In this document: one piece after another, positions 2,028-58,087 of the stretch
Position numbering within the stretch: position 1 is the stretch's first letter
Layout: each line of letters starts with the position of its first letter
From: an uncultured Rivularia sp.
GTDB lineage: Bacteria > Cyanobacteriota > Cyanobacteriia > Cyanobacteriales > Nostocaceae
Length of the DNA: 64,000 bases
Reading direction: 5' to 3'
Assembly: GCA_963665115.1 (NCBI GenBank)
Contig: OY762007.1
Span: forward strand, 1,152,001-1,216,000
Translations under genes and position numbers: made by a program
The notes under the pieces: model-generated
Databases searched by the model: none
What the model saw: only the letters and a program-made list of their open reading frames with translations
What the model was told of the DNA's origin: nothing

Positions 2028-2056
2028 TGCATAATTAAAAAAACTTGTCCGGTATG
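2028..2056 (+). promoter_or_regulatory. Candidate bipartite promoter TGCATAA...CCGGTAT (variant)
   Basis: TGCATAA at 2028 with TA at +25. Shares AATTCCTGCATAA with the copy upstream of trpA. Confidence 0.55.
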
Positions 2057-2148
2057 AAATAACAGAAGCGGCGAAACACCGCGAACGAAATGCAGACCGA
2101 ACAAGGATTAAAAAAATGCTTACTTCAACTTTACTAGATATGTGTGAA

Positions 2149-3630
2149 ATGACCAACTTGCAACCTGGTAAAAAAATTACCATTCTAGGTGCAGGTATTG
2201 CGGGTTTGGTTGCAGCTTATGAATTAGAACGTTTGGGACATGAAGTTGAGATTATCGAAGGTAGTTCCCGTGTAGGTGGAAGGGTTTGGACTCATCGCTT
2301 TGGTAAGGATAACAACGCACCTTATGCAGAGTTGGGAGCAATGCGGATTCCTAGCAGCCATCACCATACATTACATTATGTAAATGAAATGGGATTGAGT
2401 GACAAACTTTGTAAATTTATGACTGTATTTGAAGAACAAAATGCCTTTATTAATTTGGAAGGTAAAATCTTCAAGATGAAGGATGCTCCTCGTATTTTGC
2501 AACAACGTTATCAAGGAATTTTTACAGATACTCGTTACAGCGAAACAACTCGTTTATTTGCTGCTTGGTTAAAAACTATTGTTGATACTATTTCTCCCGG
2601 CGATTTGCGCGAAGGTTTAGAAAATGACCTCAAATCTCATTTGATGGATGAATTAGAAAAATTGGATTTAGAACCTTATTTTTGCGAAGATAACGAGTCA
2701 ATCGATTTACAATCTTTTATTAAAGAAAATCCTGGCTTCCGCGCTCGTTGTAGCAAAGCATTAGATATGTTTTTTGAAGATATTGTTGTTGAAACCAGTC
2801 GCGATTTATTGCAGCTTCAAGGTGGAATGGAGCAAATTATCGATCGTTTATTAGAATCTATTAAATCTCCTATTAAGTGCAATCAGAAAGTAGTAGCTAT
2901 TAGAGTTAATCCCGAATTTACAGAAATTGACTATATAGAAAATGGCGAGAAATCCACCCGCCGTTGCGATTATGTATTGTGTACAATTCCTTTTTCTGTA
3001 ATGCGAAAGATGGAATTGGAAGGATTTGATGAAAGAAAATTTAATTCTATTCAAGATACATATTATTGTCCCGCGACAAAGGTTGCTTTCCACACCAAAG
3101 AAGCATTTTGGCAAAAGCAAGGTATTCGCGGTGGTGCTTCTTTTAGCGGTGAAGGTGTGCGTCAAACCTATTATCCTTCTGTTAAATTTACTCCTGAAAG
3201 CGGTAGCATCATGTTAGCTAGTTATACAATCGGTGATGATGCTGACAGAATGGGAAATATGCCGGAATCACAACGTCACGATTACGTTAAAGATGTTGTT
3301 GGTAAAGTTCACCCCGAATTGCAAGCAGAGAATATGGTTGTGGAAGCAGCTTCTATTGCTTGGGGTAATTACGAATGGAGCGCTGGCGGTTGCGCGGTAC
3401 ATTGGGAAGATGATGCTGCAAATACTTCTAATTATTTAGAAGCTAGTAGAAGACAACATAAATTGTTATTTGCTGGCGAACATTGTTCTAGATATCCTGC
3501 TTGGTTACAAGGTTCTATTGAGTCTGCTTTGGAAGCTGTTTACGATATTGTTTCTGATAAGAGAAAGAATCGTGTAGCTACAAGTTTTGTTAATAAAATA
3601 GAAGATGCTTACGTTTTACAAGCTGCTTAG
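2149..3630 (+). CDS. Flavin monoamine/L-amino-acid oxidase family (possible tryptophan oxidase, VioA/RebO/StaO-like)
   Basis: GAGIAGL dinucleotide fold, RVGGRVWT, AELGAMRIP and FAGEH...WLQGSIESA. The substrate is inferred only from the trp gene context. Start could be 2116. Confidence 0.85.
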   Translation: MTNLQPGKKITILGAGIAGLVAAYELERLGHEVEIIEGSSRVGGRVWTHRFGKDNNAPYAELGAMRIPSSHHHTLHYVNEMGLSDKLCKFMTVFEEQNAFINLEGKIFKMKDAPRILQQRYQGIFTDTRYSETTRLFAAWLKTIVDTISPGDLREGLENDLKSHLMDELEKLDLEPYFCEDNESIDLQSFIKENPGFRARCSKALDMFFEDIVVETSRDLLQLQGGMEQIIDRLLESIKSPIKCNQKVVAIRVNPEFTEIDYIENGEKSTRRCDYVLCTIPFSVMRKMELEGFDERKFNSIQDTYYCPATKVAFHTKEAFWQKQGIRGGASFSGEGVRQTYYPSVKFTPESGSIMLASYTIGDDADRMGNMPESQRHDYVKDVVGKVHPELQAENMVVEAASIAWGNYEWSAGGCAVHWEDDAANTSNYLEASRRQHKLLFAGEHCSRYPAWLQGSIESALEAVYDIVSDKRKNRVATSFVNKIEDAYVLQAA

Positions 3631-3817
3631 AATAATTCGTCAAACTATTATACTTCCAAGCTATTGATGATATTAATAAACCCGGTTATTTCAAATAGCC
3701 GGGTATTTACAGCAGATTTCATTTAAGTGAGGTACACATCCTTTCTAGAGGGAGTAGTGAGTAGGGAGTAGGGAATAGGGAAATGTACCTCATATACAGA
3801 GAGAATTATTCATATTT

Positions 3818-3846
3818 TGCATAAACCAAAAAAGCCTCCCCCTACA
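3818..3846 (+). promoter_or_regulatory. Candidate bipartite promoter TGCATAA-N16-CCTACA
   Basis: Matches the recurring motif and spacing, about 30 bp before the aroF ATG. Confidence 0.65.
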
Positions 3847-3876: not shown

Positions 3877-4989
3877 ATGATTATTGTTACCCAAAGTGGA
3901 ACCCCTGAAGTTGAAATCGAGCGGATTATTGATGAATTGAGCGTTTACGACGGAACTGTTGAGAAAATTGTTGGTAAAGAGAAGGTTGTAATTGGTTTAG
4001 TTAGCGATACTTCTAATATTAATCTTGGTTATATTCAACAAATTAGTCCTTTCATTGAAGATGTTTTTCGAGTTGAACAACCTTTTAAGCGAGCTTCTTT
4101 AGAATACCGTAACGGCGAACATTCTGAAGTTGTTGTCCAAACTCCCAACGGTGCGATTACCTTCGGTAGAGCTTCGCTTAACGCCTTTGGTCAAAATCAT
4201 CCTTTGGTTGTTGTCGCTGGGCCTTGTTCGGTAGAGAATGAAGAAATGATTGTGGAGACTGCGAAAGTAGTTAAAGCTACTGGCGCTCAATTCCTCAGAG
4301 GTGGTGCTTACAAGCCTCGTAGCTCGCCTTATGCTTTCCAGGGACACGGTGAAAGCGCTTTACATTTATTGGCTAAGGCTAGAGAAGTTACTGGTTTGGG
4401 AATTATAACTGAAGTAATGGACACAGCAGACTTAGATAAAGTAGCGGAAATTGCGGATGTGGTGCAAATTGGCGCTAGGAATATGCAAAACTTCTCGCTG
4501 TTGAAGAAAGCTGGTGCTGCTGGTAAGCCGATTTTGCTCAAGCGCGGGATGTCTGCAACTATTGAAGAATGGTTGATGGCTGCTGAATATATCTTATCTA
4601 CTGGCAATCCTAACGTGATTTTGTGCGAGCGCGGAATTCGCAGTTTTGATAAGAAATACACTCGAAACGTGTTGGATTTATCGATTGTTCCAGTATTGCG
4701 GACTCTGACTCATTTACCGATTATGGTCGATCCCAGTCATGCAACTGGTTACTCAAAATTTGTGCCGACAATGGCTAAAGCTGCGATTGCTTCCGGTACC
4801 GATTCTTTGATGATTGAAGTTCACCCCAATCCTGCAAAAGCGCTTTCCGACGGACCACAATCTTTGACTCCAGAGAATTTTGTTGAGTTGATGCGAGAAA
4901 TTAAGCCTTTATCGGAATACTTTGGACGTGGTGATTCTAATTTAGTAAATTCAAGTTTTGTTGAAAGTGGAATTAAAGTTGGTGTTTGA
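3877..4989 (+). CDS. aroF: 3-deoxy-7-phosphoheptulonate (DAHP) synthase, class I-beta with N-terminal regulatory domain
   Basis: AGPCSVE, LRGGAYKPRSSPY, QIGARNMQNF, LCERGIR, DPSH and MIEVHPNP. ATG at 3877 follows AAGGA. Confidence 0.95.
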   Translation: MIIVTQSGTPEVEIERIIDELSVYDGTVEKIVGKEKVVIGLVSDTSNINLGYIQQISPFIEDVFRVEQPFKRASLEYRNGEHSEVVVQTPNGAITFGRASLNAFGQNHPLVVVAGPCSVENEEMIVETAKVVKATGAQFLRGGAYKPRSSPYAFQGHGESALHLLAKAREVTGLGIITEVMDTADLDKVAEIADVVQIGARNMQNFSLLKKAGAAGKPILLKRGMSATIEEWLMAAEYILSTGNPNVILCERGIRSFDKKYTRNVLDLSIVPVLRTLTHLPIMVDPSHATGYSKFVPTMAKAAIASGTDSLMIEVHPNPAKALSDGPQSLTPENFVELMREIKPLSEYFGRGDSNLVNSSFVESGIKVGV

Positions 4990-5080
4990 TGGATAAAAAT
5001 TAAAATCCTTACTACGAAAGATTAATTTAATAGTTTTATCAAACCTGGTTTTTTGTAAAAAATCGGGTTTTTTGATTCTT

Positions 5081-5415
5081 TGTAGGGTGCTGTGACGGTT
5101 ACGAAACCATTATAAAACGCAACTAAAATATTGATATTACCGTCACGCACCTTGTTGTTTTTATCATCCTTCTTGAGCTATAAAATATTAAATATAAATT
5201 CAAAACTTTGGAAGGTTACATTTTGATAATTAATTGGTGCGTGACGGTAATATTTAATTTATTTATTTATTGTAATTTAAGTTTTTTGTGACCGTCACAG
5301 CACCCTACAATAATATCTTTAATTTGTTGTTTTCTATTGGTTAATTGGTGCGTGAAGGCAATTTTAATTTTTAGTTGTATTTTATAATTTATCGTAACCA
5401 TCACACACCCTACAA
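5081..5415. repeat. Cluster of REP-like inverted repeats (GTAGGGTGC-GTGACGG...CCGTCAC-GCACCCTAC family)
   Basis: Three related stem-loop units; a similar unit lies at about 27571-27635. Confidence 0.7.
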
Positions 5416-5425
5416 TAATTAAAAT

Positions 5426-5983
5426 TTAAGATGAATGAAGCCATTTATAAAACAACTTAGTTAACCTGGGCATGACTACATAAGCTAATAATACAACTAC
5501 TAATCCAGTCATAATTGCTTGACGTAATAGAAAATGTAAAGGTGCTAAATAAGGACCGAGAAAATAACCTAAAGTAGATGCACAGATAAAAACCCCAATC
5601 CAGGTGACAAAGGCGGTTTTATATTTTGGTGGTGGAGCAGAAGCTGTGTTGGGAAGAGACACCAAAGCTTCCAATCCCGTTAATACTTGAACGCTTTCAG
5701 GTTTTTCAATTAAAGGTTGAGCGTTTTCTATCCACTGTTTTCGTTCGGATGACTTCATCCACTTGCAGAGATTTTTATAGTTATTAAAGCGTAAAATAAT
5801 TACATATTCTGTTCTACCAGGTTGCGGCCTCAGAATAGTTACTCCATGATGACCTTCAAATTGTCTTGCTGCTTCGGAAATTCCTGTCAGCCATTCTTCA
5901 TATCCCGATTCGCGACCTGGACGGATATAGTGGGAAATAACGGCTGTAACTTGTTGATTTGATTGATTTTCTTGTAAATCCAT
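5426..5983 (-). CDS. Antibiotic biosynthesis monooxygenase (ABM) domain protein with C-terminal membrane helices
   Basis: VTAVISHYIRPGRESGYEEW, WMKSSERKQW, then PPPKYK and two hydrophobic segments. Confidence 0.8.
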   Translation of the reverse strand: MDLQENQSNQQVTAVISHYIRPGRESGYEEWLTGISEAARQFEGHHGVTILRPQPGRTEYVIILRFNNYKNLCKWMKSSERKQWIENAQPLIEKPESVQVLTGLEALVSLPNTASAPPPKYKTAFVTWIGVFICASTLGYFLGPYLAPLHFLLRQAIMTGLVVVLLAYVVMPRLTKLFYKWLHSS

Positions 5984-6041
5984 AAAATAAAAATTTAGAA
6001 AGAACCATTATTTATATTGACTGATGGTGCGTGACAGTTAT

Positions 6042-6171
6042 TATAGCGATTTTCAGTTGAGTCCAATACACTCGGAACCTCACCCCGTCCTGCGGACACC
6101 CCTCTCCTTAATAAGGAGAGGGGAAGGGGGTGAGGTTAAGACGGTATTCCTCAAGCCTGAAAACCGCTATA
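6042..6171. repeat. MITE-like element
   Basis: Terminal inverted repeats TATAGCG.TTTTCAG / CTGAAAA.CGCTATA with an internal CCCCTCTCCTT..AAGGAGAGGGG hairpin. Confidence 0.65.
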
Positions 6172-6222
6172 TATTCACACACCCGCTTCGCTATTTTCAA
6201 TTACCCATTACCAATTGCAAAT

Positions 6223-6251
6223 TGCATAAACATAATTGACCAACCCCTACA
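6223..6251 (+). promoter_or_regulatory. Candidate bipartite promoter TGCATAA-N16-CCTACA
   Basis: Matches the motif and spacing, about 30 bp before the trpE ATG. Confidence 0.65.
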
Positions 6252-6283
6252 AGAAATTAAAGGACCTAATTGGAATTATTAAT

Positions 6284-8482
6284 ATGCAATTTGACACGAA
6301 TTCTTATACAACTCAAGGTGGTATATTTATATCCCGTTCCGTTACCAATACTTCTATCGATTCCGCTATTGATGAAGTTTTGATGCGTCTGGATTCTCAA
6401 CGGGGTGGTTTATTAGCTAGTAGTTATGAATATCCAGGAAGATATAAAAGATGGGCGATAGGCTTTGTCAATCCTCCTTTGGAAATATCTACAAGAGACA
6501 GAACTTTTAAAATTACGGCTCACAATGACCGAGGTTTGATTTTATTAGGTTATTTGGAAGAATTATTTTTAGATAAGTCTTATATAGAAGAGTTGGATAA
6601 GCAAGATAATTCTATTTCGGGTTCTATTCAACCGAGTAACCGTTTATTTTCAGAAGAAGAACGCAGCAGACAGCCATCTGTATTTAGCGTGATTCGAGAA
6701 ATTATCTCTGCATTTTTTAGTCCGTTGGATGAAAATTTAGGGCTTTACGGTGCTTTGGGTTACGATTTGGTGTTCCAATTTGAACAAATGCCCAAGCTGT
6801 TGGAAAGAGAAGATGACCAGAGGGATTTGGTTTTATATTTACCCGATGAGTTATTCGTCGTTGACTACCATTTACAGCAAGCATTTCGGATGCAGTACGA
6901 TTTTGTCACCAAAAACGGTAGCACTAGAGATTTACCTCGCAAAGGTGAAAAGATTGATTTCCGTGGCAAGCGTCTCAACGTGACTCAAGGTTCCGATCAT
7001 GCACCGGGAGAATACGAGCAACAAGTTACCAAGGCTTTAGATTATTTCCGACGTGGGGATTTATTTGAAGTTGTTCCTTCTCAATGCTTTTCTGAAACCT
7101 GCGAAAAATCTCCTACAGAATTATTCCGCACTCTGATGAAAATTAATCCCAGCCCTTATGGATTTATCTTTAATATGGGTGGGGAATATTTAGTTGGTGC
7201 ATCTCCAGAAATGTTTGTCCGAGTTGAAGGTAGACGTGTGGAAACCTGTCCCATCAGCGGCACAATTAGAAGGGGAGAAACTGCGATTGATGATGCGGTA
7301 CAAATTCAAAAATTGCTTAATTCACGCAAGGATGAATCAGAGCTTACTATGTGTACCGATGTCGATCGCAATGACAAGTCTAGAATTTGCGAACCCGGTT
7401 CAGTTAGAGTTATCGGCCGTCGTCAAATTGAAATGTACAGTCATCTTATCCACACAGTAGACCATGTAGAAGGTGTACTCAAGCCAGAAGCCGATGCTTT
7501 AGATGCATTTTTGACTCACTTATGGGCAGTTACCGTTACCGGAGCGCCCAAACGTTCGGCAATGCAGTTTTTAGAGCAAAACGAACGCAGCGCCAGACGT
7601 TGGTATGGTGGAGCGGTGGGAGGTTTTAATTTTAAAGGTAATTTGAATACAGGTTTGATTTTACGAACTATTCGACTCCAAGATTCAATTGCAGAAGTCA
7701 GAGTTGGTGCCACAGTTTTGTATGATTCCGATCCAGAAGCAGAAGCACAGGAAACTTTAACCAAAGGTGGTGCTTTATTCCAAGCATTGAATAGAGCCAG
7801 TCATCAAGAAGTTGCTTTACCAATAATTCCAGAATATGGCATCAAAGAAGCCAAGCCAGCAGCAGGTAAAAAAGTTTTACTAATAGATTACGAAGACTCA
7901 TTCGTTCATACCCTTGCTAACTATATTCGTCAAACAGGTGCAGCCGTCACCACATTACGATATGGTTTTCCCGAATCCGTATTTGACGAGCAAAAGCCAG
8001 ATTTAGTTGTATTGTCTCCCGGCCCTGGAAAGCCCAGCGACTTTGGTTTAGATAAGGCGATCGCCGCTTGCAAGAAACGTGAAATCCCTATATTCGGCGT
8101 ATGTTTGGGATTGCAGGGAATAGTAGAAGCCCACGGTGGAAAATTAGGAGTTTTAGATTATCCCCAACACGGTAAAACATCTTTAGTAAATGTAGTTGAT
8201 AAGGATTCCGTCGCTTTCAAAGATTTACCAGAAAGCTTTGAAGTAGGTAGATATCATTCCTTATATGCATTGCAAGATAGTTTACCCGACGAACTAAAAA
8301 TTACAGCCATATCCGCAGACGGAATAGTAATGGGAATAGAACACAAAACCTTACCAATAGCCGCAGTACAGTTTCATCCCGAATCCATCATGACATTAGT
8401 TGGAGGAGCAGGGCTGATGATTATTACTAACGTTGTACGTGAATTTACCTGTTCCGCTAAGGGAGTGGTTTTGGCTTCGTGA
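6284..8482 (+). CDS. trpE: Anthranilate synthase, fused component I + II (TrpEG)
   Basis: Chorismate-binding domain (GDLFEVVPS, ASPEMFVR, PISGT, VTGAPK) fused to a glutamine amidotransferase (SPGPG, GVCLG, QFHPES). Confidence 0.95.
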   Translation: MQFDTNSYTTQGGIFISRSVTNTSIDSAIDEVLMRLDSQRGGLLASSYEYPGRYKRWAIGFVNPPLEISTRDRTFKITAHNDRGLILLGYLEELFLDKSYIEELDKQDNSISGSIQPSNRLFSEEERSRQPSVFSVIREIISAFFSPLDENLGLYGALGYDLVFQFEQMPKLLEREDDQRDLVLYLPDELFVVDYHLQQAFRMQYDFVTKNGSTRDLPRKGEKIDFRGKRLNVTQGSDHAPGEYEQQVTKALDYFRRGDLFEVVPSQCFSETCEKSPTELFRTLMKINPSPYGFIFNMGGEYLVGASPEMFVRVEGRRVETCPISGTIRRGETAIDDAVQIQKLLNSRKDESELTMCTDVDRNDKSRICEPGSVRVIGRRQIEMYSHLIHTVDHVEGVLKPEADALDAFLTHLWAVTVTGAPKRSAMQFLEQNERSARRWYGGAVGGFNFKGNLNTGLILRTIRLQDSIAEVRVGATVLYDSDPEAEAQETLTKGGALFQALNRASHQEVALPIIPEYGIKEAKPAAGKKVLLIDYEDSFVHTLANYIRQTGAAVTTLRYGFPESVFDEQKPDLVVLSPGPGKPSDFGLDKAIAACKKREIPIFGVCLGLQGIVEAHGGKLGVLDYPQHGKTSLVNVVDKDSVAFKDLPESFEVGRYHSLYALQDSLPDELKITAISADGIVMGIEHKTLPIAAVQFHPESIMTLVGGAGLMIITNVVREFTCSAKGVVLAS

Positions 8483-8499
8483 AATTGAGAGGGAAGAAA

Positions 8500-8625
8500 T
8501 CAAAAACGCCCGCAGGCTATAAGCCTGGGGCTACACCTACAAAGCCTGCCTTCGCAGGCTAGAAGATTAATAGCCTGCGAAGGCAGGCTTCGTAAATGTA
8601 GCGATACCCTTCTAGGGTATTGCGA
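8500..8625. repeat. REP-like palindromic element
   Basis: Inverted pair AAGCCTGCCTTCGCAGGCT...AGCCTGCGAAGGCAGGCTT. Confidence 0.7.
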
Positions 8626-8652
8626 CAAAATTACGATACTCCCGAAAATTCC

Positions 8653-8681
8653 TGCATAAACTTAAAATCCCTTCCCCTAAA
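8653..8681 (+). promoter_or_regulatory. Candidate bipartite promoter TGCATAA-N16-CCTAAA
   Basis: Matches the motif and spacing, about 30 bp before trpA. Confidence 0.6.
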
Positions 8682-8713
8682 AAGAGAATAACAATCTAAA
8701 ATCTAAAATTGAA

Positions 8714-9530
8714 ATGAAATCAATATCCGAAAAATTCAAACATTTACGCGCCGAAAAGCAATGTGCTTTAATTCCATTTATCACCGCTGGCGACCCTGAT
8801 TTAGAAACTACCACAGAAGCTTTAGGAATATTAGAAGCAAACGGTGCTGATTTTATAGAGTTAGGAGTTCCTTATTCCGATCCGTTAGCCGATGGGCCCG
8901 GTGATTCAAGCAGCAGCAACCCGCGCTCTGGAAAGAGCAACTCGTTTAGATGATGTTTTACGAATCGCGCAGTCGGTAACTCGTAAAATTGAAGCTCCAA
9001 TTATTTTATTTACTTATTACAACCCCATTCTTAACTTAGGGATTGACCAATTTCTCAAAAGAATTGCCGAAGCTGGAATCAAAGGATTAGTCGTACCCGA
9101 TTTACCTTTAGAAGAAGCAGACAATTTAATAAACACTGCCGAAACAGCCGGAATCGAAGTTATTTTACTAGTTACTCCCAACACACCCGACGACAGAATC
9201 AAGGCGATCGCCCAAAAGTCTCGCGGATTTATTTATCTTGTCAGCGTCACCGGAGTAACAGGTGTTCGTTCCCAATTGCAGACGCGAGTAAAAGATGTAC
9301 TGCAAAACATCAGAAAATTTACAGATAAACCCATTGCCGTTGGTTTTGGTATATCCAGCCCAGAGCAAGCACTTCAAGTAAAAGAATGGGGAGCAGATGC
9401 AGTAATCGTCGGCAGCGCATTTGTAAAACGTTTAGGAGAATCCACACCGTATAAAGGATTGCGAGCCATTTCAGAATTTTGCGCCGAGCTTAAAGCAGTT
9501 ACCAGTGAGCAGTTAACAGTGAGCAGTTAA
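8714..9530 (+). CDS. trpA: Tryptophan synthase alpha chain, +1 frameshift at about 8897 (probable sequencing error)
   Basis: [11 protein letters not shown] and [19 protein letters not shown] join if one C is removed from [16 protein letters not shown] and VGFGIS follow. Confidence 0.93.
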
Positions 9531-9626
9531 CAGTTATAAATTTTCTACCGCATCTACCCCCTCTTCCCCCTCTTCCCCCTCTACCCCCTCTTCCCCTCTC
9601 AATCAATAAACTAATAAGGAAAAATC

Positions 9627-10841
9627 ATGCTACTAACAACTCAAAAAACAACACCAGACGCTCTCGGCAGATTTGGAAAATTCGGTGGAAAATATGTACC
9701 GGAAACTTTGATGCCTGCTTTAACTGAATTAGAAACGGCTTATCAAAAGTACCGCAATGACGCGGATTTTCAAAGTGAATTACAAGGATTACTGCGGGAT
9801 TATGTTGGACGCTCTACTCCTTTATATTTTGCCGAAAGACTTACTCAACATTATGCTCGTCCTGACGGTACGGGAGCGCAGATTTACTTAAAGCGAGAAG
9901 ACTTAAATCATACTGGCGCTCATAAAATTAATAATGCTTTAGGACAAGTTTTACTTGCTAAGCGCATGGGCAAACAAAGGATTATTGCGGAAACTGGAGC
10001 CGGACAACACGGTGTTGCAACTGCTACTGTCTGCGCTCGATTCGGTTTGGAATGCATCATTTATATGGGTGTCCACGATATGGAACGACAATCCCTGAAT
10101 GTGTTCCGAATGCGGTTGATGGGTGCGGAAGTTCGTCCGGTGGCAGCGGGAACTGGTACTTTAAAGGATGCGACTTCCCAAGCAATTCGAGATTGGGTAA
10201 CTAATGTTGAAACTACTCATTACATTTTAGGTTCCGTTGCCGGGCCACATCCTTATCCGATGATTGTGCGCGACTTTCAAGCAATAATTGGAAAAGAAAC
10301 TCGTTCTCAAGCTGAAGAAAAATGGGGTGGATTACCCGATATTTTACTGGCTTGTGTTGGTGGTGGTTCTAATGCAATGGGATTATTTCATGAATTTGTG
10401 AGCGACGTTGAGGTACGGTTAATTGGTGTTGAAGCGGCTGGTGAAGGTATTGATACTGATAAACACGCCGCTACTTTGACACTTGGTAAAATAGGTGTTC
10501 TGCATGGAGCAATGAGTTTTGTTTTACAGGATGGAGATGGACAGATTATCGAGCCTTACTCTGTTAGCGCTGGTTTAGATTATCCCGGTGTCGGGCCGGA
10601 ACACAGCTATTTCAAAGAAATAAAACGTGCTGAATATTACAGCGTCACCGATAAACAGGCTTTAGCCGCATTTCAACTGATATCGCAATTAGAAGGAATA
10701 ATTCCCGCTTTAGAAACATCTCATGCAATTGCTTATTTAGAAACACTTTGTCCCCAATTGAGCGGTAATCCTCGAATTGTACTTAACTGTTCTGGCAGGG
10801 GAGATAAAGATGTGCAGACAGTTGTGAAATTATTACAGTGA
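9627..10841 (+). CDS. trpB: Tryptophan synthase beta chain
   Basis: [29 protein letters not shown] and SGRGDKD. Confidence 0.98.
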
Positions 10842-10897
10842 GTAGTTAATAGTTAGGAGTAGTGTAGGTTAAAGGTTAAAGGTGAGCAATTATCTTC

Positions 10898-10962
10898 CCA
10901 TGCCCAATGCCCCATGCCCAATTACCAATTACCAATTACCAATTACCAATTACCAATTACCA
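10898..10962. repeat. STRR heptamer tract (TGCCCAA/TTACCAA)
   Basis: Tandem 7-mers; they create a spurious N-terminal extension in the ORF track. Confidence 0.85.
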
Positions 10963-10972
10963 GTTTTCAAAA

Positions 10973-12560
10973 ATGATTAAAAGCTTTAAATTCTTCTTTC
11001 TTCTTTCTTCTTGCTTCTGCTTTCTCTTAACTACTCCTGTCAAAGCAGAATCTGGGATGAGCCAGGTAACGAATGTCAATCAATTAAGCGATGTTCAACC
11101 AACTGATTGGGCGTTTCAAGCTTTGCAATCTTTGGTTGAAAGGTATGGTTGTATTGCTGGATATCCCAACGGCACTTTTCGCGGCAATCGGGCTATGACT
11201 CGTTATGAATTCGCTGCTGGGCTTAATGCTTGTTTGGATAGAGTTAATGAATTGATTGCAACTGCTACTACTGATGTGGTTAGTAGGCAAGATTTAGAAG
11301 TTTTGCAGAGGTTACAGGAAAGTTTTGCTGCTGAATTAGCAACTTTACGCGGTAGGGTAGATGCTTTAGAAGTGCGTAGTGCGGAATTAGAAGCCAATCA
11401 GTTTTCTACAACTACTAAGTTGAGGGGACAAGCAATTTTTGCTGTTAACGGTGGTGGTTTTGATGGGAACAGTATTATTGATGCTGCTGGGAGAACAGTT
11501 GCTAATGATGACCCCAATACCACAATGATATTTAGGGCTGGATTCGATTTAGATACCAGCTTTAACAAAACTGACTTATTAAAAATGCGTTTGGAAGCCG
11601 GAAGCGGTATATTAGGGCCAAACGGCCAACCCGACGGTGGTAGAGATAATGCCGCAGGTTTCTTGGAACCATCTTTCGGAAGTGCTTTGGATTATTCGAT
11701 TAATCCCCCTACAGACAGGGATATCGAGTTATCGAGACTTTATTACACCTTTAAACCCAGTCAAAATTTAGCAGTTACCATCGGGCCCGAGTATGCGTGC
11801 TTCTGATTTTTTAGACTTTAATAGTTATGCCAAACTCAGTTTCCGCGACTTTAGTACTCAAGCCTTTGTTAATAACTATGTAATGTTCCCCATCGAGTTT
11901 CCCAGTGCTGGTGCATTAATTGATTGGAAACCCAATAAAGGAGCTTTTTCCGTCAGGGCTGCTTATACCGCAGCAGATGCAGCAAATCCCAGCAACCAAG
12001 GCGGAATTATTGGCAATGCGCCTTTTATTAACGTACTCTATGACACCCCCAATCCTGGTTCACCTCCCGGAGTTGGAGGGGAGCGGGGTTTATTTGGGGA
12101 TAATTATCAAGGTGTAGTGGAAGTCGAATTTTCCCCTTCAAGGGATTTAGCTTTACGTTTGCAGTATAGCGGTGGAGAAGTATTTGATAACCATTTTGAA
12201 GCAATCGGAGCCAATTTAGAATTAACTCTTGCTAAGAAATTGGGTATATTTGGACGCTATGGTTACAGTAATTATGACAATACTCGGTTCGGCGATATCA
12301 GCCCTAATTATTGGATGGCTGGAGTTGCATTTAGAGACTTATTTACTAGAGGAGCTTTAGCTGGTGTAGCAGTCGGACAGCCTTTTATAGCAAACGAAAT
12401 CGGAAATTCAACCCAGACAAATTACGAAGCATTTTACAACTATCCAATTAGCCGCAACGTGCAAATTACACCCACACTGCAAATAATTGAAAACGCCGCC
12501 AATCAAGATGCTAACGGAACGATTTATACCGGAACGCTGCGGACTACTTTTTCGTTTTAG
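10973..12560 (+). CDS. Cyanobacterial SLH-domain outer-membrane porin (OprB/iron-uptake porin family), +1 frameshift at about 11788
   Basis: Signal peptide, SDVQPTDWAFQALQSLVERYGC, QFSTTTKL and C-terminal GTLRTTFSF. The two ORFs join by deleting one C in GGGCCCGAG. Confidence 0.9.
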
Positions 12561-12589
12561 AGAGGGGGGAGAGGGGGAGACATTATTAA

Positions 12590-12802
12590 AGTAGTGAGTA
12601 GTGAGTAGTGAGTAGTGAGTAATGAGTAATAAGTAGTGAGTAGTGAGTAGTGAGTAATGAGTAACAAGTAGTGAGTAGTGAGTAGTGAGTAATGAGTAAC
12701 AAGTAGTGAGTAGTGAGTAGTGAGTAGTGAGTAATGAGTAATAAGTAGTGAGTAGTGAGTAATGAGTAATAAGTAGTGAGTAGTGAGTAGTGAGTAATAA
12801 GT
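12590..12802. repeat. Long STRR heptamer tract (AGTAGTG/AGTAATG/AGTAATA), about 30 units
   Basis: Directly visible tandem array between the porin and trpD. Confidence 0.95.
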
Positions 12803-12924
12803 AAAAATAGACGGGCAGAAGTACCGACATTTATGAAAATAATAAAAAAGTGATTTACTTGCTACTCTCTACTCCCTACTCCCTACTCAATACTATTCCC
12901 AATGCCCAATTACCAAATATAAAA

Positions 12925-13989
12925 ATGATTCAAACTTTAACAAAAAATTGGTCTACATTTTTGCAACAGTTACTTTCGGGTGAATCTCTGGAAGTTTCTC
13001 AAGCTGCGGATTTAATGCAGGGTTGGCTAACTCAAAGTATTCCGGATGTGTTGTCTGGTGCGATTATTACGGCTATTCAAGCGAAAGGTGTTTCTGTTGA
13101 AGAGTTGTTGGGAATGGTGGAGGTTTTACATTCTCAATCGGTAAAACCGGATAGTGAAATTATTATCGGGGATTTACCTTTTATTGATACTTGCGGAACT
13201 GGTGGAGATGGAGCTTCAACCTTTAATATTTCTACAGCGGTTGCTTTTGTCACGGCTGCTTGTGGTGTGAAGGTTGCTAAACATGGTAATCGTTCTTCTT
13301 CGGGTAAAACTGGTTCTGCTGATGTGTTGGAAGCTTTGGGTGTTAATCTTAAAGCCGATACCCAAAAAGCTACAGCTGCTTTAGAATCTGTGGGAATAAC
13401 CTTTTTATTTGCACACAATTGGCATCCAGCATTAAAGGCGATCGCACCATTACGAAAAACTCTCAAAGTCCGCACTGTATTTAATTTACTCGGTCCTTTA
13501 CTCAATCCTCTCAAACCTACGGGACAAGTTATTGGCGTTAATAGTCCGGTTTTGATCGAAACCTTTGCTAAAGTACTGCATAACTTGGGAACTCGTCGCG
13601 GTGTTGTACTCCACGGTAGGGAAAAATTAGACGAAGCAGGCTTGGGAGATAAAACAGATTTAGCAGTTTTATCCAACGGAGAAATAGAGATAGTGGAATT
13701 AGAACCCGAAGAATTGGGTATTAGTGCAGCACCTATTAGCAGCATCAAAGGTGGGGAAGTTGCAGAAAATGCACATATCCTAAAAGCTGTTTTGCAAGGT
13801 AAAGGAACTCAGCAGCAGCAAGATGTAGTAGCTTTAAATGCTGCTTTGGCATTGTATGTGGGTGAAGCTGTTGCAGATAAAGGTGATCATTCGCAGACTT
13901 TTGCCGATGCTGTGGTATTAGCGAAAGATGCGTTGAATAGTGGGGAGCCTTGGCGAAAATTGGAAGAATTAGCGGGGTTTTTGAAGTAG
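12925..13989 (+). CDS. trpD: Anthranilate phosphoribosyltransferase
   Basis: [30 protein letters not shown] and [13 protein letters not shown]. Confidence 0.97.
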
Positions 13990-14220: not shown

Positions 14221-14248
14221 TGCATAATTGAACCAAAATTCACCTATA
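14221..14248 (+). promoter_or_regulatory. Candidate bipartite promoter TGCATAA-N15-CCTATA
   Basis: Motif match, separated from the GMC oxidase start by an inserted MITE. Confidence 0.6.
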
Positions 14249-14471: not shown

Positions 14472-14511
14472 TTCAATCAAAACAATTAATAAGCAGATCG
14501 GGAAATCAAAT

Positions 14512-19702: not shown

Positions 19703-19730
19703 TGCATAATTGACTAAATCTTCCCCCATA
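19703..19730 (+). promoter_or_regulatory. Candidate bipartite promoter TGCATAA-N15-CCCATA
   Basis: Motif match, divergent from sigma gene 1 and pointing toward the caspase gene. Confidence 0.6.
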
Positions 19731-49165: not shown

Positions 49166-49194
49166 TGCATAAATTTGTTTGAGGGGCACCTATA
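49166..49194 (+). promoter_or_regulatory. Candidate bipartite promoter TGCATAA-N16-CCTATA
   Basis: Matches the motif and spacing, 100 bp before ORF 49294. Confidence 0.68.
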
Positions 49195-52595: not shown

Positions 52596-54959
52596 TTAAA
52601 TTAGTTTTTTTAGTCTGTAGGTTGCAATGCTACCGCTACCAGCCATCAAAGCAAACACTGAAGGAATAAAGGGTATCCAACCACCTTGAATTAATATTGT
52701 ATAGCAAAGAAAATATAATACAATTTGGGTTAAGCCTAAAGTTAATGCTAATTGCAAGGATGATTTACTTTTCCAAGCTAGCATTCCGCCAACTATTGCC
52801 CAACAGTAAATCCAAAGTGCTTCTGTCCATTTTGACCATACCCATAATAATGGTCTATTATCAAGCACTGCGCTAAGAATTTGACTTACCATATGTGCGT
52901 GTATAACTACCCCCGAAGTTTTCTTTTGTGGAGATGTGGCAGCACTATAGGATGTTGACCAATAATTATTAAAGCTTTGGGCGGTTGTGCCAATAATCAC
53001 AATTTTATCTCGAACTAAATCGGGTTTAATTTTATTGTTAAGCACGTCTTGAAGGGTAACATGGGTTGCAACTTCCCTTGTAGAACGCCAATTTAACATT
53101 ATTTGATAGCCGAGACTATCGATATTACTGTAACTACCGCTATTATCTTCTAAATATGGCAGAACAAAATTATTACCTGATTTGGGGTTTTCTTCTGGAT
53201 TGAGTTTGAATTCTCTGTTTTCTTGAGCTAAGTAACGCTCTGCTAATTGAAAGCTAAAGGATTTGTCGGTATTGCAAGGTTGTGCCGGAGTCATCGCTAA
53301 TAAATGACGGCGTAGAATTCCGTCCGAATCTTCTACAACGTCAGTAAAACCCAAATTTTGTGGGGATTCTGGAGGTGATGGTACGCCGGGGTTTTCATCT
53401 CCTTCGCTGACTTGACAAACTCCAATAAATTTGGAACTTGTTTTCATCCATTTAGCTAAATTTGCATATTTGGGTTTAACGGGATTATCTCGATAAATAT
53501 TTAAACCGATGATGCGGGGGTTATATTTTTCTAATTTATCGATCAATTTTGCTAAAGCGCCATCGGAAATTGACGCAGCACCTCTTTCATCGGCATTCTG
53601 TGCCTGTACATCTGGCTCAGTAATTTTTACGATCAAAATGCGATTATCTTTGCCTTCATCGGGACGCGATCGCATCATACTGTCAAATGCTCTAAGCTCC
53701 CAATGCTCTAATAATCCGAAACTTCGCGCTCCCACAATTGCTGTTGCGATCGCCAAACCAGCGCTTAAAACTACAGGTATAATTTGACGCAGATTTACGT
53801 GATGATTATTAAGTGTTTGCGAGTATTGAATGGGATTAGACCAAACTAAAGGTGCTTCGGTAGGATTTTGACATATCACTGGCAACCAACTTGCACAGGG
53901 AAATTCTGCTTCTAAACCTTGCAATTTTTCCCCAGCTTCGCGTACTGCCCGATAAAATGATTTAGATTCGGAAAAACCTGATAGGAAAAACTGTAAAAAT
54001 CTTTGTGCGACTAAATCCGGTACGGGTTCGCGCATGACAATCATTTGCGGTATATGTAATGAAGTTAATTGCGTTGCTAATCCCAAACCATCGCAAGAAT
54101 TAAAGATTGCTAACCGTAACCCCCGCGATATTGCCGCTCTCAAACCGTTTTTTAATTGCTCGATTGTTAAACTATCATCTCTGTTAATATAAATTCGCCC
54201 ACTTTCTCCATTTCCTTGACTCGAACTATGTCCGGCAAAAAATAAGATATCCCATCCTCTTTCATCCCACAGCATCAAATCTAATTCTTGACGCTGAGCT
54301 TCTACTAAAAAAATTGTTTCCGCACCAGGTAAATTTTCTAATATTAATCTATCTTCTTGAATATCAATATTTTCGCTATGACCTAATATTGCTAATATTC
54401 TGATTTTATCTCTGAATGGTTTGTAGCTGCTTTCTAACCGTTCAAAATCCAATTTACTCAAACAGAAAACAGCATTTGGGTAATCATCAAAAAAGTCCCA
54501 TAAGTTCCAAGGTAATCGCCGTATCTCATCTAAATCTGTTTGAATAATTACCTGAATCTCTTCGCTAGGATTTAATTTTGTGCGTAATTTTTGTTCTAAA
54601 TTAACAAAAGTAGGGCAGTTGAGCCAAGTATTAAACTTATTTTTTAAATTTTCACATAAATTATGAAATTCAACCGATGAAATATTAGTTACATCTTCTG
54701 AATCAATTTCAATTTCATCATCCGATTCATATTGCTGTCGCCAAGTCAAATCAGGAATCAAAGAATCATAAAGCAAATTGTAAAGAATCTGCCAGCGTGT
54801 ATAAAGTTGGGTAAGCTCTGGTGCCGCAGGTAAACTTCCAGTAAACTGAATGGGGAAAAGATTTACGTCTCCATCGCGCTCGTAAATTTGAGCGATCGCA
54901 CTATCAAATCCCTCTTGTAAGCTACCTTTTCCCAGATTTAATACGACTAATTTACTCAT
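52596..54959 (-). CDS. CHAT (caspase-clan) protease - TM - CHASE2 sensor - TM receptor
   Basis: CHAT motifs LPW, FFAGHS (His), IFNSCDG (Cys) and WLPVICQNP. CHASE2 motifs DNRILIVKI, DSDGILRR, DKIVIIGTTA and GVVIHAHMVSQIL, then three TMs. Confidence 0.9.
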   Translation of the reverse strand: MSKLVVLNLGKGSLQEGFDSAIAQIYERDGDVNLFPIQFTGSLPAAPELTQLYTRWQILYNLLYDSLIPDLTWRQQYESDDEIEIDSEDVTNISSVEFHNLCENLKNKFNTWLNCPTFVNLEQKLRTKLNPSEEIQVIIQTDLDEIRRLPWNLWDFFDDYPNAVFCLSKLDFERLESSYKPFRDKIRILAILGHSENIDIQEDRLILENLPGAETIFLVEAQRQELDLMLWDERGWDILFFAGHSSSQGNGESGRIYINRDDSLTIEQLKNGLRAAISRGLRLAIFNSCDGLGLATQLTSLHIPQMIVMREPVPDLVAQRFLQFFLSGFSESKSFYRAVREAGEKLQGLEAEFPCASWLPVICQNPTEAPLVWSNPIQYSQTLNNHHVNLRQIIPVVLSAGLAIATAIVGARSFGLLEHWELRAFDSMMRSRPDEGKDNRILIVKITEPDVQAQNADERGAASISDGALAKLIDKLEKYNPRIIGLNIYRDNPVKPKYANLAKWMKTSSKFIGVCQVSEGDENPGVPSPPESPQNLGFTDVVEDSDGILRRHLLAMTPAQPCNTDKSFSFQLAERYLAQENREFKLNPEENPKSGNNFVLPYLEDNSGSYSNIDSLGYQIMLNWRSTREVATHVTLQDVLNNKIKPDLVRDKIVIIGTTAQSFNNYWSTSYSAATSPQKKTSGVVIHAHMVSQILSAVLDNRPLLWVWSKWTEALWIYCWAIVGGMLAWKSKSSLQLALTLGLTQIVLYFLCYTILIQGGWIPFIPSVFALMAGSGSIATYRLKKLI

Positions 54960-55136: not shown

Positions 55137-56384
55137 CTAAGCAAGCCCCTCAATGACAAAATTCTCTTTGATTTTAATATCCTTGCAAGCTACTTGAATA
55201 CTAAAATATTTACCGAGGGGTAGTTTGAATCGTTTCAATTGAATGTAATTATCGTAACTTCTAGATTCGACAGATTGTAAAGCATTTCCAGATTCGGAAA
55301 GCAAAGTTAATTGCACGTTGTCTGGTAAATAACTTTCCCCGGAAGCTGGATAAAGCTGCACTCGGATACCGACTTTGTTATCAACTTGCGGTGATAAACC
55401 AATTAATAAAGCCACTGATTTACTCTCTAACTGCATCCCCAAATCAATAAGTTTGGCTCCTTTAACACAAACTTCATTTAAAACCGAATCGCTTCTGAAT
55501 TGAAAAGTTCTCGTATCAGTTAAGCCGAATAAATCATCAACAGAACGCCAACCTTCATGAAAAATATTTTCAAACCACGAACTCAAATTATGTACGACTT
55601 TTTGGCTGTTTTCCATAAAATTAACTTGTGAATTTTTTATCCTCTGGTTGTACAAAATAGTACGATATTTTTGCGCCGATAAGATTGCTCCCCATTCTGA
55701 AAATTTCATATATAAGCGAGGTGAATAAACAGTCGGCTTGCTTAATTTTTCTATAATTTGCTTTGCTTGAAACTCCGATAAACTTGGCAAAGTTTGCACT
55801 TGTGGTTGTTCGAGAGTACAAAGCTCCTGGGCAACCCACATAATATCAATATCCGCAATCAAATCGCGGTTGCTTACACAATAAGTTCTATCCATTGAAT
55901 CATATTGTGCTTTTTCACGAATTTGCTGATGGCTAATAAAACCCCAAATTCTTAACCAACCCTCCTCAACATTTAACTGTACCTTCATATAATAATTAGC
56001 AGCCCAATTAGGGATATCAACCCATTCTTGGGGAATGCGAAATTCAGTTGGATAGCTTTGTTCATTTGGAACTAAAACCAATCGAGAACGATCGAAGTTT
56101 AAATCAATTCCATTCACAAATTCACATTGCCGAAATGAATCTTCAGATAGCTCGGGTATCTGCAATTTTTCTAGTAAATCCGGTTCATTCTTTAACAATT
56201 TGACAAAAGTATTTAAACACAAGCGATTTACAAAAACCCTATTTACTTCGGCATCATTTCGATAGTTCTCTTTTACAGTTTGTTGCCATGCTATTTCTCG
56301 TTCTTTAGCTGAAAAATCTACCCATAAATATTCGTGGTAAATTTCTCTCAAATCATCAAATTGCAACATATGACTATTAATCAT
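55137..56384 (-). CDS. DUF1822 family protein (candidate anti-sigma partner)
   Basis: EFRIPQEWVDIPNWAANYY, LSSWFENIFHEGW, GAKLIDLGMQ and VQLYP. Confidence 0.85.
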   Translation of the reverse strand: MINSHMLQFDDLREIYHEYLWVDFSAKEREIAWQQTVKENYRNDAEVNRVFVNRLCLNTFVKLLKNEPDLLEKLQIPELSEDSFRQCEFVNGIDLNFDRSRLVLVPNEQSYPTEFRIPQEWVDIPNWAANYYMKVQLNVEEGWLRIWGFISHQQIREKAQYDSMDRTYCVSNRDLIADIDIMWVAQELCTLEQPQVQTLPSLSEFQAKQIIEKLSKPTVYSPRLYMKFSEWGAILSAQKYRTILYNQRIKNSQVNFMENSQKVVHNLSSWFENIFHEGWRSVDDLFGLTDTRTFQFRSDSVLNEVCVKGAKLIDLGMQLESKSVALLIGLSPQVDNKVGIRVQLYPASGESYLPDNVQLTLLSESGNALQSVESRSYDNYIQLKRFKLPLGKYFSIQVACKDIKIKENFVIEGLA

Positions 56385-56393
56385 TTTAAAAAA

Positions 56394-57923
56394 TTATCCT
56401 TGTTTTAGCTGTATCCATCGATCTACCACATCAACTATTTTGGCATTTACCACAGATAGCGAATCTCTTTGTAAACACATAGTCCTTTCCACGTACTGTT
56501 TGAAACACTCTAAGAATCTAAGCTTTACCGCTGCTGATTCATTTAATTCTTTTAAATCATTATTATAATCTTTAACAATGAAGCTGTTTGGAGATTTAAT
56601 ACTAATAAATATACTTGTTTGTTCTTCATAACTAAACTGTTTAATAATTTCATCCAATATAGAAAAAATCAGTTGCTGGCAATAAAGCTGTAAGCATTTG
56701 TCCAAAGCAGATTTTATTCTTTCAATATCTTTTTCATTATTAAGATAGATATCTGGATTCGTTTTATTCCATTCCGAGGCAAACTCCTTTATAATAGTTC
56801 TACTATATTTTTTTAACTGACGGGCTACTTGATACTGCTTTTGTAAATCAGAATATTTATATTTAAGAAGATTGGCTATTTCAGTTTGAGTTAAATTTAA
56901 GCCCTGCCATAATTTGAAAATCATTTGACATAATTCTGGCATACTCGTAAATAATTTATCAAAAATCGTTTCTAGGTTTTGAAATTCTTCCTGCTGTATT
57001 AATACATCCCATCTAGAAGGTGCGGGATTTGATAAACCGTAATAATCTTCCTCAAAATATAAATATTCCTTGTTACGGTAATTTTTAGCTGCTTTTATAC
57101 AAGTTGAAAGCATTTCTAAAATTGCAATCTTTGTTGCAGGTGGAGAATTAATATTAAATTGATTGCATCGTTGATTATAATAACTAGCAATTTCCGTCAA
57201 TTCATCATGTGAAGGTTTTTGCGCCGAACCCGAACGGCTAGGTGTCATGTGAAAAAGTTCATTAAAACATTGCCAAGCTAAGCGATGTGAAACAACTTGT
57301 TGAGCCGGAATTTGCGCGACTAAAGCATCATTTAATTCTCCAGCACTTAAATCTTTCAATAAACCGTAACTTGAAAATCTTGTTCTTCTCGCTTCCAAAT
57401 CTTGTCGATAGATTTGGTTGCGAATAAATCTTTTAAAAGCAGTTATCGCGTATGCTTCTATATTTATTTGATTACGCTCAAAATTAAAATTATTAAAAAA
57501 CTTGCGTGGTGAATTTGCGGCGATATTTGCTATTTGAAAAAATTCTTCTAAAGAATATTTATGTTTGATATACTTAAATTCATGATGTATATCTTTTGCT
57601 GCTTTAAAACAGGCTTCTTGCAAATAAGCAGAAAAATGTTTTTTAGCCGTAGAGCAACAGCAATCTGGATTAAATTGACGTAAACTTTGATTATTCGACT
57701 GCTCTTGGATAAGTAAAGCTTTTAAAAAATATTGTGCCCAAAAACTTTCCTTAGCATCTGGATCTGCTTCTACTTTTGATCTCATATTTTTTTCAAGCGG
57801 TGCATCGTGCTTCCAACTCAATTGAATTTGAGAATTGTTGGCTGTAAAACAGATAAAGCTAGAAAACTTATCAACTAAATTCTTACGTTTTTTTACAAGC
57901 ATTGATTTTTCCAAAAACATCAA
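56394..57923 (-). CDS. Sigma-70-family (HetZ-like) factor 2
   Basis: VDKFSSF, HFSAYLQEAC and HTH LTQTEIA...KQYQVARQL; homologous to 18288-19482. Confidence 0.78.
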   Translation of the reverse strand: MMFLEKSMLVKKRKNLVDKFSSFICFTANNSQIQLSWKHDAPLEKNMRSKVEADPDAKESFWAQYFLKALLIQEQSNNQSLRQFNPDCCCSTAKKHFSAYLQEACFKAAKDIHHEFKYIKHKYSLEEFFQIANIAANSPRKFFNNFNFERNQINIEAYAITAFKRFIRNQIYRQDLEARRTRFSSYGLLKDLSAGELNDALVAQIPAQQVVSHRLAWQCFNELFHMTPSRSGSAQKPSHDELTEIASYYNQRCNQFNINSPPATKIAILEMLSTCIKAAKNYRNKEYLYFEEDYYGLSNPAPSRWDVLIQQEEFQNLETIFDKLFTSMPELCQMIFKLWQGLNLTQTEIANLLKYKYSDLQKQYQVARQLKKYSRTIIKEFASEWNKTNPDIYLNNEKDIERIKSALDKCLQLYCQQLIFSILDEIIKQFSYEEQTSIFISIKSPNSFIVKDYNNDLKELNESAAVKLRFLECFKQYVERTMCLQRDSLSVVNAKIVDVVDRWIQLKQG

Positions 57924-58058
57924 ACTTCACCATAGAGCCATTTAAATTTTTGCTTCTCCTATATTTATTGATATACAAAGCATCAAATTAACATTTAATT
58001 CATAGAAGTTAACAATTACTTACTGTACTTCGCACGCTCGCCAAGCGTTACATATATT

Positions 58059-58087
58059 TATGGGCACCCAGATAAATCGGTTATGCA
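58059..58087 (-). promoter_or_regulatory. Candidate bipartite promoter TGCATAA-N16-CCCATA upstream of sigma gene 2
   Basis: Minus strand TGCATAACCGATTTATCTGGGTGCCCATA. Confidence 0.62.

Follow-up and report, generated by a model that had tools for sequence, protein, structure and literature searches.

The module formed by a caspase, a sigma factor and a DUF1822 protein was catalogued in 2021, when protease activation and a sigma-mediated transcriptional response were proposed for it (Kaur, PMC8195603); the part of that paper available to us gives no promoter, targets or experiment for the module. Two sets of genes of this composition, each with a sigma gene adjoining genes for a DUF1822 protein and a caspase-domain protein, lie in a 64,000-nucleotide stretch of DNA from an uncultured Rivularia sp. 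(contig OY762007.1, positions 1,152,001 to 1,216,000; hereafter 'the window', or C1:1152001-1216000, C1 being a single contig of 8.69 Mb). We refer to their sigma factors as sigma 1 and sigma 2. The window also contains repeated copies of a two-box motif, and our analysis suggests that this motif, TGCATAA-N15/16-(C/T)C(C/T)A, is probably the -35/-10 promoter of DUF1822-partnered sigma factors, among which sigma 1 would be the cluster-encoded switch of a predicted indolocarbazole pathway and sigma 2 would drive its own gene. The trio of sigma 2, DUF1822 and CHAT/CHASE2 protein has the same architecture as the catalogued system (N-terminal region, CHAT, CHASE2). The sigma 1 module differs from it in having a caspase that begins with Peptidase_C14 and has a C-terminal repeat in common with a kinase, together with Tll0287-HAMP proteins, a periplasmic protein and metabolic targets. 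No match to the EACC2 model was found in either module.

A second point of comparison is sigma-HetZ with its partner PatU3, which uses the promoter TCCGGA/TGnA (Hu et al., 2026, PMC13342950). As far as that paper was available, the likenesses are a large cyanobacterial sigma70-type factor with insertions, a partner gene directly downstream, two promoter boxes (16-17 bp apart for HetZ) and paralogues (HetZ and HetZ') whose promoter use overlaps; the differences are that no kinship is detectable, that the boxes are others, that the partner is DUF1822 and not PatU, and that HetZ controls heterocyst fate. The initial annotation had called the two window factors HetZ-like. As a statement of kinship this label was rejected, given the different boxes and partner and the fact that the HetZ_related model NF037964 matches three other loci and neither window gene, while hhalign of the window factors against a three-sequence HetZ alignment gave probabilities of 0.4-6%. 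The three HetZ-related genes lie at C1:983620, 5841942 and 2461749, the one at 5841942 being followed by a PatU-like open reading frame (ORF). CRISPR-linked cascades (CASP-sigma/Csx29/Csx30 and a type III-B cascade) reportedly release a sigma factor by proteolysis. These resemble the present locus in encoding a caspase-family protease, a sigma factor and an inhibitor together; they differ in that the present locus lacks a CRISPR effector, its input seems to come from the periplasm or the membrane, and its output is metabolic. The best PDB match of the sigma-1 profile, over both sigma2 and sigma4, is 1l0o (E 8e-8), whose matched chain we take to be sigma-F. Compared with the Bacillus factors sigma-F and sigma-G, the cyanobacterial factors have about 150 additional residues. 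TGCATA contains a GNATA core like that of the -35 boxes of these factors (GTATA and GNATA, respectively; Table 4, PMC3416734), and the -10 box is unrelated.

Matches to TGCATAA-N15..17-CCYA (Y, C or T) number eight in the window, whereas 100 shuffled versions gave 0.35 on average and never more than 2. The first box by itself is not enriched (21 vs 15.8), so the enriched signal is the pair of boxes. Over the whole genome, and with gene-facing positions judged from 6960 ORFs of at least 80 aa called for this analysis, sites with spacers of 15-16 nt comprise 29 that are intergenic and face a gene, 8 that face away and 9 in coding DNA, compared with 8, 15 and 42 for ten control spacers pooled (10-14 and 17-21; Fisher p 3e-6 for intergenic position and 1e-3 for orientation). 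Some of the away-facing sites precede ORFs below the 80-aa calling limit, such as that for a 71-aa peptidoglycan-binding protein. After repeat masking, and leaving aside low-complexity stretches of C/T and G/A, the strongest dyad genome-wide is TGCAT-N18-CCTA (16 vs 1.8), and the HetZ promoter TCCGGA-N17-TGTA is recovered by the same method (10 vs 0.9). At a score of 16 or more, a matrix built from 89 sites in relatives, themselves picked by pattern, detects 24 sites in sense and 11 in antisense orientation within upstream regions, compared with 0-3 when the spacer is shifted. The motif has the architecture of a promoter, with two unequal boxes set 15-16 nt apart in fixed orientation, without dyad symmetry, upstream of genes and conserved, and we consider it very likely to be a real promoter-class motif. 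Three strong sites (C1:1037894, 2595005 and 3167148) have no downstream same-strand ORF of at least 25 aa that we could find, and may precede small RNAs or very short peptides.

Nine of the eleven sites listed in the initial annotation were recovered, and the matrix accepts all nine. The eight CCYA sites occur at the coordinates and on the strands given there, all of them intergenic and oriented towards the next gene; for the one at 3818 the sole overlap is with an overextended ORF call that begins at a TTG, the aroF ATG lying 32 nt beyond. The N16-GGTA variant at 2028 also holds, with a GGTA box before the oxidase in relatives too. The two remaining variants were not borne out: at spacers of 15-17 nt the best scores are 4.3 near 19545, where a 14-nt spacer would be needed, and 3.3 near 24563. 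A further site lies just outside the window, upstream of a di-haem protein gene (C1:1151367). Upstream of sigma 1 there is a conserved stretch, TGCATC/T...ATGATGTA; two TGCAT boxes facing each other, about 35-40 nt apart, occur at window positions 19505-19545 and in loci L222, L224 and L241, upstream of sigma 1 or of some distant relatives.

Conservation points in the same direction as the counts. TGCATAA-N16-CCTA is present in all 24 other genomes of the genus (3-27 copies; control 0-5), in 0-3 copies in 16 genomes of other families, and never in more than three copies outside the family in a phylum sample of 400 genomes. Its boxes are kept in orthologous intergenic regions. Upstream of sigma 2 the site is perfect in 20 of the 21 genus orthologues, has one mismatch in the remaining one, and is present in all four orthologues from other genera. 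The VioB-like synthase gene is preceded by the motif in 19 of 19 other cases (15 TCTA, 4 CCTA). Upstream of aroC it occurs in all 17 genus genomes in which upstream DNA is available (19 were searched, and in two this DNA is cut off) vs none of 11 from other genera, and here the spacer is well kept too, unlike sites whose boxes stay while their spacers diverge. A site divergent from sigma 1 is found at 17 of 22 loci, eight with N15 and nine with N16; since one orthologous site takes either spacer, we treat the 15- and 16-nt forms as one class and reject the idea that spacer length separates sigma 1 sites (15 nt) from sigma 2 sites (16 nt). None of the 22 loci has a site facing sigma 1. The autoregulation claimed in the initial annotation is accordingly supported for sigma 2 and not supported for sigma 1. 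In one relative (G002 C71, L136) sigma 2 is reduced to a remnant of about 65 N-terminal residues directly before DUF1822, and its upstream motif is still perfect.

By profile and modelled fold, sigma 1 and sigma 2 are sigma70-family proteins, each with a helical insert separating the sigma2 and sigma4 domains. The named homologues closest in identity to sigma 2 carry the label Rivularia in their sources. The family profile TIGR02937 is matched, as is PF04545 for the sigma4 helix-turn-helix. In structure models of limited confidence (pLDDT, the predicted local distance difference test, 73 and 79; pTM, the predicted template modelling score, 0.35 and 0.41), of which that for sigma 1 was made from an intact orthologue 95% identical to it (G003), the sigma2 domain would correspond to residues 62-145 of sigma 1 (8b3z; Z 9.1, root-mean-square deviation (rmsd) 1.9) and residues 10-173 of sigma 2 (5h6x; Z 7.8, rmsd 2.9), and sigma4 aligns with 2h27 (sigma 1; Z 8.7, rmsd 1.4) and 3hug (sigma 2; Z 8.7, rmsd 2.6). 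Foldseek gave no match for sigma 2 at E <= 0.001, though its top rows were mostly sigma factors, and phmmer of sigma 2 against the PDB gave none. The gene for sigma 1 is interrupted by one extra base that appears in sequencing run X1 and is absent from runs X2-X4; orthologues are mostly about 400 aa long, and we rejected the idea that sigma 1 is a pseudogene, three of four runs being free of the extra base. Four apparent frameshifts occur in the window, at 8865-8899 (trpA), 11786 (oprB), 18795 (sigma 1) and about 26090 (MFS-FHA); two of these fall where the runs give coverage, and X2-X4 do not show them, while the other two positions are intact in G003. A QY-type sigma4 helix, KQY-T/Q-I/V-S/A-R, is common to sigma 1 and sigma 2. 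It is missing from two paralogues, sigL, whose clade comprises proteins of 475-483 aa with the helix TSWDQARR, and sigma 3 (C1:1531115-1532302, helix SQSTVSR), upstream of which no TGCATAA was found. Every one of the 12 DUF1822 genes in the genome follows a sigma-like gene; ten of these sigma-like genes lie elsewhere in the genome and had been missed in the initial annotation.

The genes headed by the motif or a one-base variant of it suggest what the regulon is for. In this genome they are aroC, aroF, trpE, trpA, two flavin amino-acid oxidases, a VioB/StaD-type synthase, two P450 units, in one of which an O-methyltransferase gene follows, a UDP-glycosyltransferase, the MFS-FHA exporter and the di-haem protein, as well as a Ser/Thr kinase, the caspase, TPR-CHAT and CHAT-CHASE2 proteases, a two-partner-secretion protein, sigma 2 and sigL. 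The pathway genes among them stand at three loci (the window, C1:1.43-1.45 Mb and C1:8.54 Mb). One P450 has 2z3t, presumably StaP, as its best PDB match (E 2e-109), and the synthase scores 738 bits against the VioB model, under its cut-off of 1250. Oxidase, synthase and P450 form the core of indolocarbazole biosynthesis (PMC7497240, as available), and the corresponding set of predicted tryptophan oxidase, chromopyrrolic-acid-synthase homologue and StaP-type P450 is found here. The targets would thus constitute a staurosporine-type, or indolocarbazole, pathway whose product is a prediction, and the tryptophan genes, not recognised as such in the initial annotation, would be its supply arm. The link that annotation drew between the tryptophan genes and the sigma/caspase module is supported.

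Such a pathway is predicted in 19 of the 25 genomes of the genus. In G004 and G021 it forms a single contiguous cluster with the genes for sigma 1, DUF1822, the caspase, the Tll0287 proteins and the periplasmic protein in its middle, and the motif starts nearly every transcription unit; in G019 and G020 a P450, the exporter and tryptophan genes flank sigma 1 and the synthase is further away; and in G258, from another genus, the synthase, oxidase, P450s and sigma 1 fall within about 30 kb. For G021 and G008 the map covers the second half and a small part, respectively. Behind the synthase in G021 and G258 are proteins of 534-541 aa with a Rossmann-type start, possible candidates for a RebC/StaC-type flavin monooxygenase, with no match in the present genome (G000). 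The 71-aa stand-alone peptidoglycan-binding protein (C1:1440534-1440749, minus strand) has its own motif site and is encoded within the clusters of G004, G019, G020, G021 and G258. The clusters for tjipanazole (Fischerella ambigua), staurosporine and rebeccamycin have the same tryptophan oxidase, chromopyrrolic-acid-synthase homologue and StaP-type P450 (PMC7497240); the cluster here differs from them in its own tryptophan supply genes, its three P450s and its sigma/caspase/kinase module, and no halogenase was seen in the mapped pathway loci. The string 'regulat' does not occur in the available part of the tjipanazole paper (PMC7497240). Our literature searches, which did not extend to subscription papers and supplements (the supporting information of PMC13342950; the motifs in Data Set S2 of PMC6495340), found no paper on the motif or on the module's targets, none on an indolocarbazole-type pathway in this genus and none linking the caspase-sigma-DUF1822 module to a natural-product pathway; the available parts of PMC11119718 and PMC13200232 contain nothing on the motif.

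Which factor reads the motif was approached through its distribution. Sigma 1 is encoded in 22 and sigma 2 in 21 of the 25 genus genomes, and in the two complete ones that have neither, CCTA counts are at control level (5 vs 5 and 3 vs 3). Among 46 family genomes of other genera, four carry sigma 2, with 30, 7, 5 and 3 sites, and one carries sigma 1, with 12; the 41 without either factor have 0-4 sites, and the four highest counts (30, 12, 7 and 5) all belong to genomes with one of the two factors. All 20 genomes with the synthase, out of 77, have sigma 1. In five complete genomes the CCTA sites within 30 kb of sigma 1 number 4, 8, 4, 6 and 9, against about 0.15 expected, and those within 30 kb of sigma 2 number 2, 0, 2, 2 and 0. 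Where sigma 2 is present without a sigma-1-class gene, every site ends in CCCAT (5/5 in G169, 3/3 in G250), and in G258, with sigma 1 and no sigma 2 match, only 1 of 12 does. Around distant sigma relatives TGCATA recurs with the second boxes CGTG, CGTA, CCAAT, CGATA and GGATA, and with N15-CCTA in G040, G027 and G391; these boxes follow a quick version of the sigma tree. These patterns make it highly likely that the DUF1822-linked sigma family reads the motif, and they support, with rather less assurance, sigma 1 as the switch of the predicted indolocarbazole-type pathway. The initial annotation's reading of the motif as the -35/-10 pair of an alternative sigma factor is in keeping with this.

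Several observations weigh against an assignment to sigma 1 and sigma 2. The split between CCCAT and CCTA rests on few sites, and most of the 40 loci around distant relatives show no clear CCTA-type site. With 12 sigma-DUF1822 pairs in the genome there are more than two candidate readers, and the reader is therefore inferred rather than demonstrated. The aroC site is kept in G005 and G012, which have neither factor, and both show a residual excess with a broader pattern (24 vs 11 and 17 vs 11); more distant QY-type paralogues retained in both may account for this, or the loss of the sigma factors may be recent. Conversely, G258 has sigma 1 and the cluster yet no aroC site, and three genus genomes (G001, G006 and G010; fragmented or incomplete) have sigma 1 without the synthase. 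There are 20 CCTAT sites in G299 without a close sigma 1, for several intergenic sites we could find no ORF in the direction in which they point, and, the genomes being related, the co-occurrences amount to about three independent events. In a rival account all sites would be recognised chiefly by sigma 2, and sigma 1 would be a passenger or one more co-regulated gene of the cluster. Of the two genes, that of sigma 2 alone is preceded by the motif; sigma 2 too is absent from G005 and G012; and G299, where the count reaches its maximum of 30 and CCTAT makes up two thirds of the sites, combines sigma 2 with a sigma-1 relative of only 49% identity. We nevertheless think this unlikely, as G258 has the cluster and 12 sites with no sigma 2 match, the sites crowd around sigma 1 and not sigma 2, and motif-type sites flank sigma-1-like genes in other families (three in G040, one in G027).

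Another paralogue could be the reader, most plausibly the sigL clade, in which case neither sigma 1 nor sigma 2 would recognise the motif. A near-identical site, TGCATAA-N16-(T/C)CCA, precedes sigL at 16 of 20 genus loci, with related flanking sites in G258, G299, G094 and G079; sigL is present in both G258 and G299, and G005 has sigL together with residual sites. This too counts against our assignment, and sigL may be either a target or a reader of the motif. Its distribution does not track that of the motif, however: G005 (with a sigL 91% identical), G079, G094 and G276 possess sigL and show no enrichment, sites occur in G169 and G250, where sigL has no match, only 0-2 sites lie within 30 kb of it, and its helix is unlike the QY type that accompanies TGCATA across families. 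We rejected sigL as sole reader and regard a reading of the motif by another paralogue as improbable. Alternatively, an ordinary transcription factor or a described sigma factor (SigF, SigJ or HetZ) might bind the motif, the DUF1822-linked factors being no more than targets; this agrees with the persistence of the aroC site in genomes lacking sigma 1 and sigma 2. It seems a poor prospect all the same, considering the absence of dyad symmetry, the unequal boxes at 15-16 nt in fixed orientation, the near-background counts in most genomes of the family, where SigF, SigJ and HetZ can be expected, and the variation of the -10 box with the clade of the neighbouring sigma gene. The motif also differs from the promoters of SigF (TAGGC/GGTAA; PMC2758279), SigJ (GGGaAtacT; PMC6495340) and HetZ given above, and from that published for SigA, insofar as these sources were available. 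A dispersed repeat or chance is the least credible source of the pattern and can practically be set aside. An intergenic repeat family containing TGCATAA does produce a peak at spacer 22 in this genome, which we rejected as a promoter class, and another repeat inflates the counts in G383 and G223; the 15/16-nt sites, by contrast, have no common spacer or flank sequence, survive repeat masking and are kept upstream of orthologues. Members of the TGCATAA repeat family lie at window positions 47623, 52251 and 52376 and at least 15 further places in the genome.

Based upon the reading of the motif by sigma 1 and sigma 2, we propose a model in which sigma 1 holoenzyme would contact TGCATAA via sigma4 and (C/T)CTA via its sigma2 region and inserts, with the helix common to both factors recognising TGCATA. 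The -10 box would vary by clade, CCTA/TCTA near sigma 1 and CCCAT before sigma 2, with overlap in this genome; sigma 2 would keep itself on through its CCCAT site and would cross-read. More speculatively, DUF1822 would hold the sigma factor inactive until the neighbouring caspase releases it, the caspase being set off through the Tll0287/periplasmic-protein/kinase module. The C-terminal repeats of the caspase and the regulon kinase match at E 1e-20, and this repeat may join the two proteins; the FHA domain of the exporter is likely to read the kinase's phosphothreonine. Transcription would then proceed from chorismate supply (aroC, aroF) to tryptophan and on to the oxidase, synthase, P450s, methyltransferase and exporters. 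The DUF1822/caspase step is modelled on the proposal of Kaur et al. (PMC8195603, as available) and on the protease-sigma cascades of CRISPR systems. The repeat itself, of about 60 aa, is found in the caspase, the Ser/Thr kinase (C1:2561923-2563395) and a third protein (C1:5567711-5568838), has no convincing Pfam match and is a candidate homotypic adaptor.

Table 1. Motif sites and predicted genes of the regulon. Positions are those of the window unless prefixed C1; G numbers denote genomes of relatives.
Feature	Position	Strand	Remarks
Variant TGCATAA-N16-GGTA before flavin amino-acid oxidase, promoter-like	2028..2054	+	matrix score 16.1; same variant in G003, G004
TGCATAA-N16-CCTA before aroF	3818..3844	+	conserved in G003, G004, G019
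TGCATAA-N16-CCTA before trpE(G)	6223..6249	+	conserved in G003, G004, G019, G020
TGCATAA-N16-CCTA before trpA, likely heading trpA-trpB-oprB-trpD	8653..8679	+	conserved in G003, G004, G019
TGCATAA-N15-CCTA before GMC oxidase	14221..14246	+	N16-CCCA in G003, G019
TGCATAA-N15-CCCA, divergent from sigma 1, facing caspase	19703..19728	+	17/22 orthologous loci
TGCATAA-N16-CCTA before MFS-FHA exporter	27212..27238	-	conserved in G003, G004, G019, G020, G021; absent in G013
TGCATAA-N16-CCTA before 117-aa Cys-rich ORF	49166..49192	+	pattern match and matrix
TGCATAA-N16-CCCA before sigma 2, likely autoregulatory	58061..58087	-	20/21 genus orthologues, 4/4 distant ones
MauG-like di-haem protein (726 aa), C-terminal part	43..1641	+	its site just before window
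Flavin L-amino-acid oxidase, predicted StaO/RebO/Tjp1-type tryptophan oxidase	2116..3630	+	
aroF, trpE(G), trpA, trpB, oprB, trpD (predicted tryptophan supply arm)	3877..13989	+	
GMC (cholesterol-oxidase-like) oxidase	14452..16071	+	
DUF1822 partner of sigma 1, candidate anti-sigma	17053..18228	-	adjoins sigma in 36 sigma-1-like loci
Sigma 1, ~400-aa sigma70-family factor, sigma2 and sigma4 domains with inserted helical region	18288..19482	-	split by one extra base near 18795
Caspase-family protease, C-terminal repeat in common with regulon Ser/Thr kinase	20266..22407	+	His/Cys motifs intact
Two Tll0287-HAMP membrane proteins (-) and periplasmic binding protein (+)	22477..25566		travel with sigma 1
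MFS transporter with C-terminal FHA domain	25562..27173	-	frameshifted in this assembly
CHAT (caspase-like)-CHASE2 membrane protease, EACC2-type architecture	52596..54959	-	His/Cys motifs intact; architecture per PMC8195603, as available
DUF1822 partner of sigma 2	55137..56384	-	
Sigma 2, 508-aa sigma70-family factor	56394..57920	-	separate clade
VioB/StaD-type synthase, GST-like protein, three P450s, O-methyltransferase, MFS	C1:1431423-1447054 (L258)		synthase 141 + 958 aa here; intact ~1100 aa in relatives
Second oxidase and P450	C1:8538937-8542193 (L259)		

Other features of the window lie between the two modules. Three tandem HEAT-FGE-sulfatase (GUN4/FGS-type) genes occupy 27791-33119; this family has been linked to conflict systems (PMC8195603, as available). 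At 36595-40964 two ORFs make up a leucine-rich-variant repeat protein, with a pentapeptide-WD40 protein behind it, and an AAA ATPase with a vWA-like DUF2201 metallopeptidase, adjoining dinB, is encoded at 40971-44729.

If the proposed reading holds, the predicted caspase/sigma/DUF1822 module gains a concrete promoter and a concrete output, testable with one reporter. The likely switch of the pathway can be named, and expressing this sigma factor would offer a direct means of activating the pathway. Genes at three separate loci are also joined by the motif into one pathway, which cluster finding based on proximity would miss. In broader terms, and tentatively, most Rivularia-type cyanobacteria could have a conserved staurosporine-type alkaloid pathway whose master switch is a sigma factor gated by a caspase and a kinase, a factor that captured the promoter of the housekeeping gene aroC and kept control of the pathway after the cluster had scattered; the large family of paralogues to which this factor belongs, with one -35 box and clade-specific -10 boxes, may then represent an unrecognised promoter code for cyanobacterial chemical defence.

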